Shown piece after piece: positions 18,158-25,453 of a stretch of 64,000 nucleotides of DNA. Every line of letters begins with the position of its first letter. Position 1 is the stretch's first letter. The stretch comes from Thermodesulfobium acidiphilum. Lineage in GTDB: Bacteria; Thermodesulfobiota; Thermodesulfobiia; Thermodesulfobiales; Thermodesulfobiaceae. A program made the translations under genes and the position numbers. The stretch lies in the NCBI RefSeq assembly GCF_003057965.1, contig NZ_CP020921.1, positions 394,100 to 458,099 of the forward strand. Direction: 5' to 3'. The notes beneath the pieces are model-generated. The model did no database searches. It was not told the origin of the DNA and worked only from the letters and a program-made list of their open reading frames with translations.

Positions 18158-18379
18158 ATGGCTGAAATAAAGTTTGAAATCATAGAAACATTGGGAACCA
18201 TTTCAGAAAGTCCAAAAGGATGGAAGAAGGATTTAAAACTGGTTAGCTGGAACGATAAGACTGCTAAATATGATATTAGAGAGTGGTCATCCAATTATGA
18301 TAGAATGGGCAAAGGGTTGACTTTTACAAAAGAAGAGTTGATCTCTTTAAGAAATATTTTAAATACACTTGAACTTTAG
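18158..18379 (+). CDS. YdbC/PC4-family ssDNA-binding protein
   Basis: GWKKDLKLVSWN..KYDIREW..MGKGLT; GAGGAGG SD. Confidence 0.9.
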   Translation: MAEIKFEIIETLGTISESPKGWKKDLKLVSWNDKTAKYDIREWSSNYDRMGKGLTFTKEELISLRNILNTLEL

Positions 18380-18478: not shown

Positions 18479-19876
18479 ATGATTTCTTTAAAGAATATAA
18501 TTTTGCTGTGTTGTTTATGTGTGGCTAGTTTTATGGTAAGCCTTGATGTTAGCATAGTAAACATCTCTTACCCTTACTTGAGCAAAGTTTTTAACGTCAA
18601 TACTGAAAGTGTATCAAATTTGGCAATATTTTATCTTTTGTCACTTTGTTCAATGCTTATTATTTTTGGAAAAATTTCTGATTCTATAGGAGCGTCAAGG
18701 GTATTTTTGTTTGGATCTCTTTTATTCTCTTTGACTTCGCTTTTTTGTGCTGTTTCAGGGAATTTTTATATCCTGTTGATAGGAAGGTTTTTACAGGGGG
18801 TATCATCAAGTATGATTTCTGCAACTACAGGAGCCTTGATTTTGCAACGTTTGCCCAAAGACTTGATAGGAAGGTCTTTTGCAGCAGTTACCGGGCTTGG
18901 AGGAATAGGATTTGCATTTGGTTCTCCAATTGGTTCGCTTTTGGTGGAAAATTTTGGATGGCACTCTATTTTTTTAATAAACGTACCCATAGGCATTCTG
19001 ACTTTTATTTTTGGGATTATTTCGTTATCAAAGACATATGAAACAAGGCTCAAAAATAAAATTGATTTTTTAAGCTCTCTTTTGATCTTTCTAATAATTT
19101 CTTTGTTAACCGTTATATTAAGTCTATATAGAATTATAATCGAAAAAAATTTGATTTTCTTGCTATGGGTTCTATGGTTTTTGCTTTTCTTCTTCTTTTT
19201 GTATTATGAAAAGAAAAACAAAAATGCGACTATAGACTTTTCAATCTTCAGGAACAAAAACATATTGTTTGCACTTATTTCGAGTTTTCTAATAGTTTGT
19301 TTGTTTGATGGTTTTAACTTCATAATACCCTTTTTTGCCATTGGCGCAATGGGTTTTAGCCAGGAACTGACAGGTTTTTTGATTGGTGTTGGAAGTACGA
19401 TAACTATCTTAACATCTCCATTGATTGGGTTTTTGTCTGATAGATTTGGTCACAGGAAAATGTGTATCCTTTCCTCGGTGAATGTTTTTTTGTCAAGCAT
19501 ATTGTTCTTTTTTATTCAAAATTTCGTTTCTATTTTTTATTTTGTAATTGCTATTGTATTTGCTGGTATTGGCTTAATTGGGTTTTTCGTTGCAAGTCCA
19601 TCTCTTATTTTAGGACAGGTAAAAAAAGCGCAAAGTGGTTTTGTTTCCTCATTCATCCAGGTGGTTCAAAATCTTGGAGCTATAATTGGCATATATATTT
19701 TTAGCAATTTTTATGGGAAAATAGATATATATGAATCGAGGAAACTTTTGGAAAGGGGTTTTCACGATGCGTGTTCTTTTGGGATATTCTTAAGCTTTAT
19801 TTCGATAATTTTTTCTTTTTTTGCATTTGAAAACAGGGCAAAAGGAGTTTTGGGTGCCGAGTATAAAGATAAATAA
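18479..19876 (+). CDS. MFS drug efflux transporter (DHA2/EmrB-like)
   Basis: LDVSIVN, GRFLQG, WHSIFLINVPIG; many transmembrane segments. Confidence 0.88.
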   Translation: MISLKNIILLCCLCVASFMVSLDVSIVNISYPYLSKVFNVNTESVSNLAIFYLLSLCSMLIIFGKISDSIGASRVFLFGSLLFSLTSLFCAVSGNFYILLIGRFLQGVSSSMISATTGALILQRLPKDLIGRSFAAVTGLGGIGFAFGSPIGSLLVENFGWHSIFLINVPIGILTFIFGIISLSKTYETRLKNKIDFLSSLLIFLIISLLTVILSLYRIIIEKNLIFLLWVLWFLLFFFFLYYEKKNKNATIDFSIFRNKNILFALISSFLIVCLFDGFNFIIPFFAIGAMGFSQELTGFLIGVGSTITILTSPLIGFLSDRFGHRKMCILSSVNVFLSSILFFFIQNFVSIFYFVIAIVFAGIGLIGFFVASPSLILGQVKKAQSGFVSSFIQVVQNLGAIIGIYIFSNFYGKIDIYESRKLLERGFHDACSFGIFLSFISIIFSFFAFENRAKGVLGAEYKDK

Positions 19877-20594
19877 CCTTGAAACGTATTATGAGATTTT
19901 TGGAGCAGGGACCGATTGTCTGATTTTGCACGGTGGCAGTGAAAACATTAGTACGATGCATAATCTGGCAGGTAGACTGTCTGAAAAGAATTATAAGATA
20001 TATTTGCCTGAACGAAGGGGACATGGCAGAAGCCTGGATACAGGCGATGAGTTTTCTTATGAACAGTTTGCATCAGACACATATCAGTTTATAAAAGCCT
20101 TTAAGCTGGAAGGGTGTTATGCAGTAGGTTATAGCGATGGGGCGATAATTCTTCTGCTTTTGTCGATAGAGAATCCAACACTTTTCAAGAAGATCGCTTT
20201 GTTGGGGGGACAATATCACTATGAGGGTCTTGAACCATATTTTGTAAAAGCTTTAAAGACAGATAACGTTTTAAAACTTTTTGAAAAAGAGAGAATAGAA
20301 TATGAAAGGATAAATAAATACGGCGTAAGTTTCGAAAAATTCCTGAAAAAAATAATTTTGCTGTGGCTGACATCTCCGAAAATTGATTATACAGAGCTCA
20401 AAAAGATAACCACTCCTACTTTGATAATTAGCGCTGACAGAGACATTATAAAGCTTGAACACACTATTTCTATGTTTAGGGCGATTGAAAGATCACATCT
20501 TGCAATTATACCCAATTCTAATCACAATTTCCCAATTTCTAGACCTAATTTTACAGCTAGTTTGATTTTGAACTTTTTTAACTCAAAGCCATGA
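19854..20594 (+). CDS. Alpha/beta hydrolase
   Basis: LHGG, RGHGRS, GYSDGA nucleophile elbow, C-terminal His; GTG 19854 after AAGGAG. Confidence 0.88.
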   Translation: MPSIKINNLETYYEIFGAGTDCLILHGGSENISTMHNLAGRLSEKNYKIYLPERRGHGRSLDTGDEFSYEQFASDTYQFIKAFKLEGCYAVGYSDGAIILLLLSIENPTLFKKIALLGGQYHYEGLEPYFVKALKTDNVLKLFEKERIEYERINKYGVSFEKFLKKIILLWLTSPKIDYTELKKITTPTLIISADRDIIKLEHTISMFRAIERSHLAIIPNSNHNFPISRPNFTASLILNFFNSKP

Positions 20595-22894
20595 AAATTA
20601 AAGTATGTCCTTTTCAGATTCTCGTATCAAAGGAAAACAGGAAGCCTTCAATATGTATAAATTGTTTAGATGAAAATGGCGAAAGGATAAAATTGTTTGA
20701 TGATAGTTTCAGACCAAGTTTTTACGTGCTTGTCGAAGAGAACAGTGAAAGGATAGAGTCTGTTATTAACTCTTCTCTTAATGAGGGAGTTAAGGAATTT
20801 AAAATAGAAAACAAGATATATATTGGTGAGAATAAGAGGTTTTATAGGATATATTTTGATTTCAATGAAGATAAGGACGTCCAAAGTGCTAAATTTTTTA
20901 AAAAATTTAGAGAGTTTATTTTATTTCATCACGATCTGAGGCCAACAGTTCAGTATATCTTAGAAAAGAACATAACCTTTTGCGCTTTCAATGAGATAGA
21001 AGTAAATAAATTTTCAGATGGTTATAGGGTAGAGGGTGATTTTTCTTTATATAGCTACGATTATCCTGACTTTAAATCTATGTCCTTTTACTTCTTGACA
21101 GATAGCAAGGTGTTAAATCCTGATCCAGAAATAAACAAAGTTACTTATATATCAATATTTTCCAATGAGGGGCCGATGACTTTTGAGGGGGACGAAAGGG
21201 GTATCTTTGAGAGTTTTTTAACATTTATCAAACGTTACAAGCCGAGCATCATATACGTTTTTAACGTCGGTCAAGATGATTTTGACTTCATGGCGAAAAG
21301 GGCAAAAAGCTTAGGCCTTGATCTAAAATTTGAGGATAGTCTTCCTGTTAAAGGCCAATTTGGTTCCATTCAAATAGATTCGATAGTAATATTCGATCTC
21401 TTCCAATATGCCCAGACTTTGTATGACCTTAAGCAAAAGGAATTAAAAAAGACTTTAGAGTTTTTGAATATAGCTTTTCAAAAGGATTACATTCTAGACC
21501 AGATCGAACTTGTAAAAGCTATTGAGTTTTTAGATGCTGAAAGGTTGTCAAAGCATTGTAAATATTCTGCCAAATCTATCTTTGATCTTGGAGAGCTAAC
21601 CCATCAGTTATACTTTTCTCTATCTCAGATTACGTTTATGCCGCTTGATGTTGTGATATTTGCTCCTACCGGGTTTAGGGTTGAAGGGCTTTTTATGAAA
21701 AAGAGTTATTTACAAAATATGATAATATTGCCGAAAAAACGACACGTTAGCGATTCTTATGAAGGGGGTATAGTTCTAAAGACATCTCCTGGAGTGTATA
21801 AGAACGTAGTAGTTTTAGACTTTAAGAGCATGCTTCCGTCTATTATGATAAGATATAACATTTCATTTGATACATTTGTTGAGGAAAGCTGTGATGAAGA
21901 ATGCTTTAAGTCTCCAAAGAATAAATATAAGTTTAGAAAGAGACCGGACGGATTCTATAAAAAAATCCTTCAAGAATTAATTTCTGAAAGGGATAGAATA
22001 AAAAAAAGTATGGATAATTTTCCAAAGTCTTCGAAAGAGTATATCTTCCTGAACGCTAAACAAAAGACCTTGAAGATAATTACAAATGCCTGTTATGGAT
22101 ATGCAGGGTGGCAAAGTGCCAGGTGGTTTAAGAAAGAAATTGCTGAGGCCACTTCCGAGTGGGGCAGGAAGACTCTAACAGATGCAATAGAACTGGCTGT
22201 AAGTTTAGGTCTTGAGATTATATATGGCGACACAGATAGCCTTTTTATAAAAGAAAGTGAAAATATAAGCAAATTTCTTTCAGAATTGAAACTTAGGGGC
22301 GAAATTATTAAAGTTGACGAAGTCTTTAGATCGGTTGTTTTTACTGAGGCTAAGAAAAAATATGCTGGAATTAACGATTCCGGGGAGCTAGTCCTGGTTG
22401 GTTTTGAAGGGGTCCACGGTGATGTTCCAGAAATTGTTAGGATTGTTCAGGAAAAAATTTTAAGATCTATTTTGAATTTTAAAGGATTTGATGCTGCTAT
22501 AGAAATTTTACAGGACGAAATAGAGAAGCTAAGAAATAATGAATATCCACTTTTGTCCTTTGTAATTTATAGGGCTGTTAATAAGAATATAAGTTCATAT
22601 GAAGTAAGAGCACCTCACGTTGAGGCTGCTAAAAAATACATTCAGATGGGATTCAAGTTGAGATCGGATAACATTATAGGATATGTGATTACAAAAGGTG
22701 CTGGAGCAATTAACTCAAGGGCTATGCCTTATATCTATTTGAAAGTCGAGGATGTAGATGTTGATTACTATATAAAAAATTTACTTGTTCCTTCTGTTTC
22801 AAGAATTCTATATAGCATTTTTGGAAAAAAAGTTGTCTTTAAAAACGACAAATTGATTGTGGATAATGATAAAAAGGATTATCTTTTCAATTGA
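20591..22894 (+). CDS. polB: Family B DNA polymerase, archaeal-like
   Basis: YEGGIV, DFKSMLPS, KIITNACYGY, YGDTDSLF, KKKYAG, YEVRAPHV. Confidence 0.9.
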   Translation: MKIKVCPFQILVSKENRKPSICINCLDENGERIKLFDDSFRPSFYVLVEENSERIESVINSSLNEGVKEFKIENKIYIGENKRFYRIYFDFNEDKDVQSAKFFKKFREFILFHHDLRPTVQYILEKNITFCAFNEIEVNKFSDGYRVEGDFSLYSYDYPDFKSMSFYFLTDSKVLNPDPEINKVTYISIFSNEGPMTFEGDERGIFESFLTFIKRYKPSIIYVFNVGQDDFDFMAKRAKSLGLDLKFEDSLPVKGQFGSIQIDSIVIFDLFQYAQTLYDLKQKELKKTLEFLNIAFQKDYILDQIELVKAIEFLDAERLSKHCKYSAKSIFDLGELTHQLYFSLSQITFMPLDVVIFAPTGFRVEGLFMKKSYLQNMIILPKKRHVSDSYEGGIVLKTSPGVYKNVVVLDFKSMLPSIMIRYNISFDTFVEESCDEECFKSPKNKYKFRKRPDGFYKKILQELISERDRIKKSMDNFPKSSKEYIFLNAKQKTLKIITNACYGYAGWQSARWFKKEIAEATSEWGRKTLTDAIELAVSLGLEIIYGDTDSLFIKESENISKFLSELKLRGEIIKVDEVFRSVVFTEAKKKYAGINDSGELVLVGFEGVHGDVPEIVRIVQEKILRSILNFKGFDAAIEILQDEIEKLRNNEYPLLSFVIYRAVNKNISSYEVRAPHVEAAKKYIQMGFKLRSDNIIGYVITKGAGAINSRAMPYIYLKVEDVDVDYYIKNLLVPSVSRILYSIFGKKVVFKNDKLIVDNDKKDYLFN

Positions 22895-22944: not shown

Positions 22945-23292
22945 ATGTACATAAAGATGTTGAAATCAAAGATTCATAGAGCAAAGGTAACGGATACAAA
23001 CCTCAATTATGAAGGCAGTATAGGCATAGACAAAGCTTTACTTGAAGAGTCAGGAATAATGCCAGGTCAGGCGGTAAGCATATTTAACCTTAATAACGGA
23101 GAGCGTTTTGAAACTTATGTTATAGAGGCAGAAAAAAATTCTGGTAAGATAAGTTTGAACGGTGCTGCAGCAAGACTTGCTGAACCAGGTGATTTGGTTA
23201 TTATAGTGGCATACTGCTGGGTTGAGGATAAAGAACTAAAAGACTTTGTTGCAAAAATTGTTTACGTTGATGAAAAAAATAAAATAGTATGA
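22945..23292 (+). CDS. panD: Aspartate 1-decarboxylase
   Basis: KSKIHRA, YEG/SIGID self-cleavage site, NGERFETY, NGAAAR. Confidence 0.95.
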   Translation: MYIKMLKSKIHRAKVTDTNLNYEGSIGIDKALLEESGIMPGQAVSIFNLNNGERFETYVIEAEKNSGKISLNGAAARLAEPGDLVIIVAYCWVEDKELKDFVAKIVYVDEKNKIV

Positions 23293-23999
23293 GGGATATA
23301 GATCAGCAAGAATTAAGAAGATATATAAGAAAAAACTCGCTATTAATAGCGATTGTTTCAGTATTTTTTACCTTTATTCTCGTTTTGTCTGATTATCTAA
23401 ATCAAGGGCCGATGTTTAAGCTAATAATATTGTCCCTTTCAGTATTTGTAATACTGTTAATTCTTTCTAGAGCTTATAGAAATAGGAATATAAGTTTTAT
23501 TTCAGATAGCATGAAAATAAGGCCTTATAGGATTACTGAAGAACTTGGTAAAGAATTGGAAACGATACCAGAAAATTCTTTGGTATACACCCATTTTCCA
23601 GGAAGATATGGCGATATATTATATTTATTGGTGATTTTGGGCTCTGGTATTTTTATTATAAACGTGTGCTACACTAAGGGTTCTTTTTCAATAAAAAACA
23701 ATGAATTTTTTTTAGATAACGCTAAACCAAAAAGGGATATATTGACAGTAGCCTTGAAAAACAAAGTCTGGTTAGAAGAGGAAATTAGAAAAAATCTAAA
23801 AGTTGACGTAAACGTTTTTTCGCTAATTGTTTTTATTAACTCTGATATTAATGGTGTTTTTGAGTTAAATAATGTATATTTAATGAACAGAGAAAGTCTG
23901 GCAAACTTTTTGAAAGCTAAAAGGGATTTTCGGATAAACATGAAAGATATTTCAAATTTATTGAAGAAGATTATAGAAAAATATAGTTTTAAGGAGTAG
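23289..23999 (+). CDS. Membrane-anchored NERD-domain protein (divergent)
   Basis: Two N-terminal TM helices; GDILYLLVILGSGIFIINV resembles NERD GDIDH..GIFVIETK with the catalytic residues altered. Confidence 0.55.
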   Translation: MRDIDQQELRRYIRKNSLLIAIVSVFFTFILVLSDYLNQGPMFKLIILSLSVFVILLILSRAYRNRNISFISDSMKIRPYRITEELGKELETIPENSLVYTHFPGRYGDILYLLVILGSGIFIINVCYTKGSFSIKNNEFFLDNAKPKRDILTVALKNKVWLEEEIRKNLKVDVNVFSLIVFINSDINGVFELNNVYLMNRESLANFLKAKRDFRINMKDISNLLKKIIEKYSFKE

Positions 24000-24005
24000 G
24001 TAGAT

Positions 24006-24545
24006 ATGAAAAGCGATGAAAATGTTGAACAGGGCATAATTGATAAAATTGGCAATATTGACGCTGGAAGGCCAAATCTTGGACTATTGATGCCCGTATT
24101 TATGTACAGGTTTTTCTTTATCTCTGTGCAGGAGAAACTAAAAGAAAGATTTGGACAAAGCGAAGCTGACAGGGTTTTGTTCGATGCAGGATTTTTAGCT
24201 GGAAACGAATTTTGTGAAACATTTATTTCTGCCGAAGGTGACGTTAAAAAGTTTTTGGTATCCTTGCAAACAGCGTTCAAGGAACAAAGGCTTGGTGTAT
24301 TGCAATTAGAGGATATGGATTTGAATTCTTTATACTTTGAGATAAGTATTTTAGAGGATGTCTATTGCTCTGGGGTTGAACATTCTGATCGCTTTGTTTG
24401 TAGCATGTGCGAGGGATTTTTGGCTGGGATATTTAGTTTCTATTTCAAAAGAATCTTTGAAGCCAAAGAATTAGAGGCGTGGACTGGAACTAATCCAAAA
24501 AGCACTTTTGAATTAAAACCGAAGAAAATAAAAAAATCTTCTTAA
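24006..24545 (+). CDS. V4R (4-vinyl reductase) domain protein
   Basis: GRPNLG..PVFMYR, EDVYCSG, C..EGFLAG. Confidence 0.8.
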   Translation: MKSDENVEQGIIDKIGNIDAGRPNLGLLMPVFMYRFFFISVQEKLKERFGQSEADRVLFDAGFLAGNEFCETFISAEGDVKKFLVSLQTAFKEQRLGVLQLEDMDLNSLYFEISILEDVYCSGVEHSDRFVCSMCEGFLAGIFSFYFKRIFEAKELEAWTGTNPKSTFELKPKKIKKSS

Positions 24546-25453
24546 TGTTTGATACAGAACTTGAAGCTATAATAGAAAGGTTTAAGCTTTGTGGTTTTTT
24601 GATTAAAGATATTAAAGTAATTCAGTATGGAGTTCAGTTAAAAGTTTTGTTTGGAGAAGAAGAAGCAGTTGTAAGGTTTTATAAGAATAAAAAAAGTGGC
24701 CTAAAACTAGATACATCTCTAATAAAAAACACCGATTTAAAAAATGAAATTAGTTATTGCTTTAAAAATACATTTAAAAAATATTTGATATCTCAAGAAA
24801 TAGATGAGAAGTTCGACTTTTATATTGGCTCTGATGAAAGTGGAAAGGGAGATTACTTTGGACCTCTGGTAGTTGCGGGGGTAAAAATGACGGATGAAAA
24901 TCTGATATTTTTAGAAAGTTGTGGGATTAAAGATAGTAAAGTGTTAAGTGAGGATAGGATCTTTTGTCTTGAATCTGAAATTATTAATTCAAAAGTTTTA
25001 TACAAAAGAATAACTGTATTGCCCGAGAAGTATAATAATGTTTATGAATTTTACAGGTCAAAAAACGCTAATTTGAACGATATTCTTGCAAGGCTTCATT
25101 TTGAAACAATAAGTTATTTTCTGGATAAAGAAAGCAGTTTTAATGTAGTGGTGGACAAATTTTCTATCAATAGCGGTTTAAAAGAAAAGTTTTCAGGGTA
25201 TAAGAATGTAAAATTTTTTGAGGTAGAAAGAGCTGAAAGTAAATTTTTGTTTGTGGCTGCTGCCTCAATTCTGGCTCGTGCAGAATTTTTGAGACAGATG
25301 AAAAAGTTATCTGATGAAGTTGGGATCAAATTGAAAAGGGGGAGCGTGAGCGTTAGGGATGTTGCACAAAAAATCGTTGAACAATATGGTTTGGATGGCT
25401 TGAGAAAGGTTGCAAAATTGCACTTCAAGATTACAAAGGAACTGAAACTTTGA
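24545..25453 (+). CDS. rnhC: Ribonuclease HIII
   Basis: GSDESGKGDYFGPLVV, DSK, DKF, AAASILAR, AKLHF; N-terminal extension. Confidence 0.9.
   Translation: MFDTELEAIIERFKLCGFLIKDIKVIQYGVQLKVLFGEEEAVVRFYKNKKSGLKLDTSLIKNTDLKNEISYCFKNTFKKYLISQEIDEKFDFYIGSDESGKGDYFGPLVVAGVKMTDENLIFLESCGIKDSKVLSEDRIFCLESEIINSKVLYKRITVLPEKYNNVYEFYRSKNANLNDILARLHFETISYFLDKESSFNVVVDKFSINSGLKEKFSGYKNVKFFEVERAESKFLFVAAASILARAEFLRQMKKLSDEVGIKLKRGSVSVRDVAQKIVEQYGLDGLRKVAKLHFKITKELKL

Follow-up and report, generated by a model that had tools for sequence, protein, structure and literature searches.

An archaeal PolB3-type DNA polymerase with leucine at the steric gate and without proofreading residues in Thermodesulfobium, a bacterial genus lacking a detectable Pol I polymerase domain

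Introduction

In family B DNA polymerases, the motif A tyrosine that acts as the steric gate is treated as near-universal, and laboratories that want a polymerase able to write RNA or xeno-nucleic acids (XNA) remove it as a standard measure. Both the role of this residue and the effect of substitutions at Y409 or Y412 are established in archaeal enzymes of the family (PMC13136892, PMC9738464). Here we describe a bacterial gene, polB, in which the gate codon specifies leucine. The gene lies in a stretch of 64,000 nucleotides of the genome of Thermodesulfobium acidiphilum (NCBI RefSeq assembly GCF_003057965.1, contig NZ_CP020921.1, positions 394,100 to 458,099 of the forward strand), hereafter the window, and encodes a family B polymerase (PolB) of the archaeal PolB3 type from which the catalytic residues for proofreading have also disappeared.

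The original papers on such substitutions are those on Vent Y412V and on Tgo TGK, the latter reportedly combining an exonuclease-deficient (exo-) background with A485L, Y409G and E664K. In Thermococcus kodakarensis, PolB exo-/Y409L and exo-/Y409V were built as variants that incorporate more ribonucleotides; they could be maintained on a plasmid only, the cells not tolerating them at the chromosomal site of the native gene. When placed in a background without RNase HII, the Y409L and Y409V strains had alkali-labile genomic DNA, as did the parent lacking PolB, and it was argued that a loss of discrimination would be better tolerated in an enzyme that makes only short patches (PMC13136892). The changes A485L, Y409G/V, D614N and E664K have been described as key to polymerases that write RNA or sugar-modified strands, with E664 regarded as a secondary steric gate (PMC9738464). 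Outside family B, the mycobacterial DinB2 is described as 'naturally adept at incorporating ribonucleotides' (PMC12926913) and MsDpo4 as being without a steric filter (PMC6846668).

Bacterial family B polymerases are divided into groups G1-G3 and minor groups without the N-terminal domain (PMC12926913), and the hallmarks of archaeal PolB2 and bacterial G2 are a single Asp in motif C, a D(K/R) motif and a missing ExoIII (PMC7544198). The main texts of these two surveys name neither a bacterial group derived from PolB3 nor Thermodesulfobium, although their supplementary tables may list the protein. A literature search on Thermodesulfobium and DNA polymerase returned no published work on this enzyme, and the portions of the literature covered by our searches mention no natural family B polymerase without the gate. 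New here is a bacterial family B polymerase derived from B3 whose steric gate was replaced in nature, with the replacement fixed under selection, in a lineage with no detectable Pol I polymerase.

Results

Leucine replaces the steric-gate tyrosine throughout the genus

An earlier note, made from the letters of this stretch alone, had read motif A of PolB as DFKSMLPS with a leucine codon, CTT, at the gate. Direct reading of codon 415 bore this out. CTT is two base changes away from TAT or TAC, and Leu415 aligns with the Tyr of SMYPN in the solved structure 5mdn and with Y409 of KOD polymerase (4k8z). The inspection of orthologues that the note had proposed gave leucine in six of six. These were placed in an alignment of 232 rows, comprising the six orthologues, other proteins from database matches and open reading frames (ORFs) of 80 loci from archaea and metagenome-assembled genomes (MAGs), all of 680-900 aa. 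At the gate column it contains Y in 224 rows, L in six, W in one and H in one; leucine is confined to the six orthologues of the Thermodesulfobium type and occurs in every one of them, a pattern beyond chance, and the presence of Tyr in 224 of the 226 other rows argues against the residue being freely replaceable. With a looser gate pattern and a set of 288 sequences, in which proteins bearing inteins were included, the counts were Y 260, L 6, H 3, N 1 and R 1, with 17 unmatched. Among 81 locus ORFs retained by a motif filter that let through Y, L, F and A alone at the gate, Tyr was present in 76 and Leu in three (the listed orthologue loci), and two did not fit the fuller motif A pattern. We also observed three archaeal-type PolBs (P0044, P0045 and P0152) that carry DF(R/S)SLHP(S/T), with His at the gate, two of which are long and intein-bearing.

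Around the altered gate the polymerase core is preserved. Motifs B and C, which the note had called intact, were so in the alignment: D410, D547, D549, K495, N499, Y502 and K588-K589-Y591 are present and invariant over 17 sequences, and the catalytic Asp columns of motifs A and C hold D in 231 of the 232 rows. The Pfam models DNA_pol_B (PF00136; 4.6e-53, 181.1 bits, residues 352-742) and DNA_pol_B_exo1 (PF03104; 1.9e-10, 41 bits) matched PolB, each against a cut-off of 23. None of the nine NCBIfam matches reached its curated cut-off, and the shortfall was greatest in relative terms for the Pol II model of E. coli type (NF004421), with 140.5 bits for a cut-off of 570. Among solved structures the closest was chain A of 5mdn (4e-113, residues 16-745), the PolB3 of Pyrobaculum calidifontis (PMC7544198), followed by Thermococcales PolBs (about 1e-77) and E. 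coli Pol II (3.5e-14). The segments GWQSARWF and YEVRAPHV, from which the note had drawn a likeness to archaeal PolB3, match GWxGARWY and YEVxAPHV of archaeal relatives in the alignment. In the AlphaFold model (predicted local distance difference test 85.4, predicted template modelling score 0.81), disorder is limited to residues 760-767.

Sixty positions are conserved in at least 90% of the 226 other rows, and the genus retains 51 of them. The nine that are altered in all six orthologues are E113H, P398T, Y415L, P426F, Y513F, R609H, W612V/I, G693D/N and Q731L. In the alignment with KOD polymerase, the counterparts of R609 and W612 are R612 and W615, the residues flanking D614, and T493 and R661 stand at the positions of A485 and E664. 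The E664 position is basic (Lys or Arg) also in the relatives examined from the TACK archaea (Thaumarchaeota, Aigarchaeota, Crenarchaeota and Korarchaeota), and is not genus-specific.

Archaeal ancestry and loss of the proofreading residues

The source genome, a single contig of 1.77 Mb that is 99.99% complete, contains in profile searches one DnaE-type polymerase and a beta clamp, without PolD and without PCNA, and the PCNA (PCNA_N) profile found nothing in any of the four genus genomes, which make up the entire phylum in the genome collection used. This set identifies the host as a bacterium, in line with the note's proposal that an archaeal-type enzyme had been acquired horizontally. In a collection with one genome per species, the 80 best loci were 30-36% identical and came for the most part from Thermoproteota, among them Desulfurococcales and Bathyarchaeia.

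A FastTree phylogeny of all 232 rows placed the bacterial clade (support 100, stem 1.32) within a TACK set of 107 rows (support 99) without fixing its position there. For IQ-TREE, 59 rows were chosen and the remaining 173 of the 232 left out. Under LG+C20, a 50-row TACK clade that includes PolB received a Shimodaira-Hasegawa-like approximate likelihood ratio (SH-aLRT) of 100, and a 31-row clade (support 99) united the four bacterial rows with all 27 archaeal rows that lack the ExoI carboxylates; the LG+G4 tree recovered the same 31-row set (support 95). Placement inside this set is model-dependent and the program warns of long-branch joins. The stem of the bacterial clade is long, at 1.3-2.4 changes per site. 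In an approximately unbiased (AU) test under LG+G4, monophyly of the 27 archaeal proofreading-dead rows without the bacterial proteins was not rejected (p-AU 0.68), and in the constrained trees the bacterial clade was their direct sister. We therefore place PolB in or beside the proofreading-dead archaeal clade. Judged from alignments and trees, the protein sits inside the archaeal TACK PolB3 group. Of the phylogenetic comparison with PolB1, PolB2, PolB3 and bacterial Pol II that the note had called for, the B3 placement was thus obtained, from trees that contained no B1 or B2 sequences.

The note had also read ExoI as FYFL and ExoIII as HCKYS. Comparison with solved archaeal PolBs confirmed both, since FDIE of ExoI aligns with F166-Y-F-L169 and Y-x-x-x-D of ExoIII with H322...S326; the ExoII region, NVGQDD, retains its Asn (N225) and Asp (D230). 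Among the 232 rows, ExoI D-x-E and ExoIII Y...D are both present in 149, both lost in 82 and mixed in one, the ExoI pair being absent from 83. The archaeal proofreading-dead B3-like clade (Bathyarchaeia, Geothermarchaeota and Methanomethylicia; P0007-P0011, L011-L037 and others) retains all its polymerase motifs. The simplest reading of the trees is that proofreading had already been lost in the archaeal donor line, which we regard as likely, with some reserve because long branches may attract one another. Leucine at the gate and a few thumb changes would be the only features of the genus's own, and the dead exonuclease was probably inherited. The suggestion of a repurposed enzyme with dead proofreading stands as regards the loss of the catalytic residues and probably falls as regards a repurposing step in the bacterium, that loss being shared with the archaeal clade.

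The gene is maintained under purifying selection

All four genus genomes carry polB. The closest proteins are 92, 75, 71, 71 and 70% identical, two of these five being source-named Thermodesulfobium (T. narugense and Thermodesulfobium sp.), after which identity drops to 36%; a library of 1.84 billion representatives shows the same gap, with one match at 1249 bits (71% identity) and the next level at 436 bits (35%). No stop codon occurs within the gene in any of the four genomes. A search for RNA sequencing runs that contain the gene listed none. The ratio of nonsynonymous to synonymous substitution rates (dN/dS) was 0.052 (dS 0.79) and 0.148 (dS 0.10) for the two unsaturated pairs, and 0.083-0.184 for flanking genes. 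Divided by domain, the closer informative pair gave 0.056 for the N-terminal, 0.079 for the exonuclease-like and 0.038 for the polymerase domain. The low value for the exonuclease-like domain, together with the confident model, suggests that this dead domain is kept as a folded part of the protein. PolB is a maintained, functional gene under purifying selection, like its neighbours. A substitution private to a decaying copy, which the note had named as the outcome that would undo its reading, is excluded by the presence of the gene in four of four genomes and by dN/dS values of 0.05-0.15.

The same data bear on whether polB might be an inactive relic, or the polymerase of an integrated mobile element (casposon, virus or plasmid, for instance). 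The long stem branch would be compatible with such a history, and casposon PolBs are reported to branch near those of Thermoprotei (PMC4104785). Against this, besides the purifying selection and open frames, all polymerase catalytic residues are intact, the chromosomal gene order is conserved, the G+C content of polB (0.32-0.34) is that of its surroundings, and neither Cas1 nor an integrase is found among its nine neighbours; identity is 24% for the best phage match and 22-28% for the best plasmid matches, which cover the protein in part. We consider a relic or mobile-element polymerase highly improbable. A pseudogene origin was rejected given the intact ORF under selection in four genomes, as were casposon, phage and plasmid origins, with no Cas1 or integrase nearby and no close phage or plasmid relatives.

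The genus has no recognizable Pol I polymerase

The family A polymerase domain (PF00476) was not found in any of the four genus genomes even at E<=1; all bacterial controls (10/10) were positive. The 5'-3' exonuclease domain occurs once in each of the four, in open frames of 300-303 aa. The protein of the source genome, of 296 aa, matches only positions 2-283 of an 890-position Pol I model, and its C-terminus, ...QKKLFS, conforms to the pattern QxxLF of clamp binding; the gene is not followed by any remnant of a polymerase. About 4% of bacterial genomes are reported to be without family A polymerases, almost always keeping the solo 5' nuclease, and bacteria can manage without the Pol I polymerase (PMC12926913).

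Two further proteins of polymerase type are encoded in the source genome. One is a single DinB-type polymerase. The other is a PolX-like protein that matches only the PHP and thumb domains of Pfam (E<=1) and whose alignment with Thermus PolX begins only at residue 220; with palm and fingers undetected, its polymerase core looks degenerate. Another bacterium (G029, 94% complete) likewise has no PolA match, and contains an 852-aa open frame with a weak family B match (E 4.6e-4).

The C-terminal tail is a candidate clamp handle

Across the six orthologues L765 and F766 never change, unlike the 20 residues that precede them; the tail takes the form [K/N]-[D/N]-[Y/L]-L-F, and PolB itself ends in KDYLFN. 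In bacterial PolBs of the G1/G3 type the terminal residues are QLRLF, QLTLF or QLSLF; tails of the DFF type are found in the archaeal relatives. Use of the bacterial clamp through this tail is a tentative suggestion, and we would sooner doubt it than assert it. A predicted complex of PolB residues 731-767 and the beta clamp, the latter entered as a 24-row alignment, scored 0.00 and was run without controls; it is not used as evidence either way.

A possible gap-filling role with relaxed sugar discrimination

Taken together, these findings are best read, with roughly an even chance of being right, as pointing to a gap-filling and Okazaki-maturation polymerase that replaces Pol I and has relaxed sugar discrimination. 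On this reading, a PolB3-type polymerase of TACK archaea was acquired by the ancestor of the genus Thermodesulfobium and retained as an active, primer-dependent enzyme without proofreading. It would supply the short-patch synthesis normally given by Pol I, in lagging-strand gaps after primer removal and in repair synthesis, acting alongside the solo 5' nuclease, RNase HII/HIII and ligase. The exchange of Tyr for Leu would weaken exclusion of the 2'-OH and make ribonucleotide insertion easier than in relatives; the inserted ribonucleotides may be tolerable in short patches, and RNase HII would remove them. PolB is proposed as the short-patch supplier because a family A polymerase is missing beside a solo 5'-3' exonuclease, and the missing Pol I polymerase suggests housekeeping gap filling over a fringe repair role. 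We infer such a Pol I-like role from gene content, and it could be right or wrong in equal measure. In T. kodakarensis, the activity of PolB has been mapped to the lagging strand, with a possible maturation role 'akin to bacterial Pol I' (PMC13136892). For the priming role that the note had also envisaged, we found no evidence.

Several observations weigh against this reading. That Pol I is missing is not enough to give its job to PolB; DnaE or the DinB-type polymerase could fill gaps. The gene order around polB (transporter, hydrolase, polB, panD) is uninformative on replication or repair, and the tail of PolB is without the Gln of the usual clamp motif. Leucine is itself a bulky residue at the gate, and in T. 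kodakarensis Y409V leads to more genomic ribonucleotides than Y409L (PMC13136892); in view of these two points the gate effect in PolB may be modest or compensated. Further, a B3-like PolB can be a mere accessory that coexists with Pol I. It was found in six of 41 genomes around an Acidobacteriota-labelled MAG (G041), five of the six being proofreading-dead with a Tyr gate and one (G079) intact, and PolA is present in all but G041 (five of six). In those five PolA-bearing genomes the PolB is proofreading-dead in four and has intact exonuclease motifs in G079. The 41 genomes include one flagged as unpublished (G077; PolA present, no PolB match), on which no claim rests.

The proofreading-dead, Tyr-gated B3-like PolB of G041 (L045:1967-4297) lies on a truly bacterial contig with uvrB, grpE, groEL and a CcrM-like methylase, the PolB gene adjoining uvrB; G041, for which genome completeness is not given, has no PolA match and a complete solo 5' nuclease of 279 aa. 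A further bacterium (G040) combines PolA with a proofreading-intact PolB that is 31% identical. A general rule linking B3-like PolB to loss of Pol I was rejected, since five of the six holders around G041 have PolA. Given this coexistence, the stand-in role in Thermodesulfobium is put forward as a hypothesis for this genus and not as a rule.

The tally also speaks for an alternative, namely that PolB is an accessory polymerase for damage tolerance or repair, comparable to E. coli Pol II, archaeal PolB2 or eukaryotic Pol zeta, which is used only at lesions or in stationary phase while DnaE covers for Pol I. Four of the five PolA-bearing genomes hold a proofreading-dead enzyme of this type, the gene adjoins uvrB in G041, bacteria do live without the Pol I polymerase, and proofreading-dead PolB2/G2 enzymes are reported to work in translesion synthesis (PMC7544198). 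On the other hand, dN/dS of polB is as low as that of its housekeeping neighbours, and a scan of nine neighbours found no lexA, imuA/B or PolB2-type partner genes. The genus, moreover, is without any other obvious short-patch polymerase, given PolA in none of four genomes and the unrecognizable core of the PolX-like protein. An accessory role is possible, though we think it on balance doubtful.

For the relaxed gate, the second element of the gap-filling reading, the guide is the engineered exo-/Y409L enzyme, which has the same genotype as PolB. By analogy with it, loss of sugar discrimination is plausible, and we lean slightly towards it. The competing view is that Leu415 is neutral or compensated and that PolB is an ordinary dNTP-specific enzyme without proofreading, like Taq Pol I. 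Leucine preserves much of the bulk at the gate, and Y409I and Y409L have been reported to behave unlike variants with small side chains (preprint 10.64898/2025.12.18.695305). Motif B retains Asn499, the counterpart of which is a second 2'-OH sensor in Pol epsilon (PMC10639073), and eight further conserved positions were altered along the long stem, so that compensation is possible. Set against these points are the Tyr shared by 224 of 226 relatives and the fact that others picked Y409L as a compromised-gate variant (PMC13136892). In addition, the co-changed R609H and W612V/I flank the D614 position, which has been engineered for sugar-modified strands (PMC9738464). A neutral or compensated leucine is a serious contender, although we would not bet on it.

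A stronger claim, that PolB uses ribonucleoside triphosphates (rNTPs) regularly in its physiological role, appears unlikely. Proofreading-dead, non-aromatic at the gate and basic at the secondary gate, it could be the natural counterpart of the RNA-writing family B enzymes, routinely laying down, as it fills gaps in a thermophile devoid of Pol I, patches with ribonucleotides or made wholly of them when dNTPs are scarce, for later replacement via RNase HII/HIII; this too we consider improbable, to a similar degree. Two RNase HII-family genes are present in the source genome, one of them being the RNase HIII-like gene near polB.

Features of the locus

The gene order transporter, alpha/beta hydrolase, polB, panD, an uncharacterized 236-aa gene and a V4R-like gene is common to the four genomes. 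Coordinates are collected in Table 1. Between panD and the RNase HIII-like gene lie a conserved 236-aa protein at 23289-23999 (+), without a Pfam or NCBIfam family match, and a 179-aa V4R/MsvR-like protein at 24006-24545 (+), the scores of which are under the cut-offs; within the reach of the loci, all four genomes conserve both. A small protein of 73 aa, encoded 2.2 kb upstream of polB at 18158-18379 (+), belongs to the PC4/p15 family of transcriptional coactivators (PF02229, 2.3e-8). Members of the PC4/p15 family bind single-stranded DNA.

Table 1. Features of polB, its neighbours and two genes elsewhere in the source genome. Positions are those of the window unless a locus is named.
Feature	Location	Strand	Remarks
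polB, 767-aa family B DNA polymerase, archaeal PolB3 type	20591..22894	+	Stop codon included; uninterrupted ORF
polB N-terminal domain, aa 1-130	20591..20980	+	Confident fold in model; dN/dS 0.056
polB 3'-5' exonuclease-like domain, aa 131-340	20981..21610	+	Fold retained, catalytic residues gone; dN/dS 0.079
ExoI remnant, F-Y-F-L vs F-D-I-E	21086..21097	+	Asp and Glu gone
ExoII region, N-V-G-Q-D-D	21263..21280	+	Asn and Asp retained
ExoIII remnant, H-C-K-Y-S vs Y-x-x-x-D	21554..21568	+	Tyr and Asp gone
Motif A, DFKSMLPS	21818..21841	+	Catalytic Asp410 retained
Codon CTT, Leu415, steric-gate position (KOD Y409)	21833..21835	+	CTT in 4/4 genomes
Motif B, QKTLKIITNACYGY	22061..22102	+	K495, N499 and Y502 retained; T493 = KOD A485 position
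Motif C, YGDTDS	22223..22240	+	Two catalytic Asp retained
KKKY primer-binding motif	22352..22363	+	Intact
Thumb H-G-D-V vs R-G-D-W (R609H, W612V/I)	22415..22426	+	Genus-specific; 98% and 91% conserved positions; KOD R612 and W615, flanking D614
R661 (Lys in five orthologues), KOD/Tgo E664 position	22571..22573	+	'Secondary steric gate' (PMC9738464); from KOD alignment
Disordered C-terminal tail, ...KKDYLFN	22868..22891	+	Candidate sliding-clamp handle; L765 and F766 invariant in six orthologues
Alpha/beta hydrolase gene	19821..20594	+	Stop overlaps polB start by 4 nt; arrangement kept in four genomes
RNase HIII-like gene (RNase_HII fold)	24545..25453	+	1.65 kb downstream of polB, same strand
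Solo Pol I-type 5'-3' exonuclease, 296 aa	G000:C1:925459-925956; L093:1138-2028	-	Downstream of ruvA-ruvB, outside the window
PolX-like protein, 573 aa	G000:C1:626718-626894; L130:766-2487		Just upstream of dnaE, outside the window

Discussion

From a thermophile's enzyme in which the gate has been replaced naturally and kept under strong selection one would learn how cells cope with a polymerase of this kind, and PolB would provide a thermostable natural scaffold for comparison with engineered enzymes. If routine rNTP patches were indeed made, PolB would be the first natural family B polymerase with rNTPs as normal substrates. If the gap-filling role is correct, an archaeal enzyme would have displaced the polymerase half of a bacterial Pol I; the coincidence of an archaeal PolB and Pol I loss in one bacterium makes testable the long-standing idea that this half is replaceable and the 5' nuclease is not.

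Among known systems, PolB resembles archaeal PolB3 (P. calidifontis 5mdn and Thermococcales PolBs) in its three-domain architecture over the full length and in motifs A, B, C and KKxY. It differs in belonging to a bacterium without PCNA, in the lost ExoI and ExoIII residues and the Leu at the gate, in a thumb that reads H-G-D-V/I where PolB3 has R-G-D-W, and in a tail ending in LF as opposed to the DFF type. The proofreading-dead archaeal B3-like PolBs of Bathyarchaeia, Geothermarchaeota, Methanomethylicia and others share with it the loss of ExoI D-x-E and ExoIII Y...D and fall into the same 31-row clade in every best tree; at 30-36% identity, however, all of them keep the Tyr gate and the R-G-D-W thumb.

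The bacterial groups G1 (E. coli Pol II), G2 and G3 are likewise family B enzymes in bacteria, and G2 is archaeal-derived and proofreading-dead as well. In G2 and B2, nevertheless, motif C contains one Asp only and ExoIII is missing, whereas motif C of PolB is YGDTDS, with the DTD doublet of aspartates, and its ExoIII region aligns as a remnant. G1 and G3 proofread and end in QLxLF, and the Pol II model scores PolB far under its cut-off, as given above. Mycobacterial DinB2/MsDpo4 and the LigD polymerase domain are comparable as natural bacterial repair polymerases that take rNTPs and in which the gate residue is missing, but they belong to other families (Y, and the archaeo-eukaryotic primases, respectively).

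The nearest parallels by position are engineered. T. kodakarensis exo-/Y409L and Tgo TGK have, like PolB, no ExoI carboxylates and a non-aromatic residue at Y409, and the basic residue at E664 has its equivalent in R661, or Lys in the orthologues. TGK departs from PolB in having Gly and not Leu at the gate and Leu and not Thr at position 485, and it is a product of engineering, whereas PolB is natural, fixed and selected. T. kodakarensis PolB exo-/Y409L, by comparison, is the exact laboratory counterpart of the genotype that Thermodesulfobium carries.

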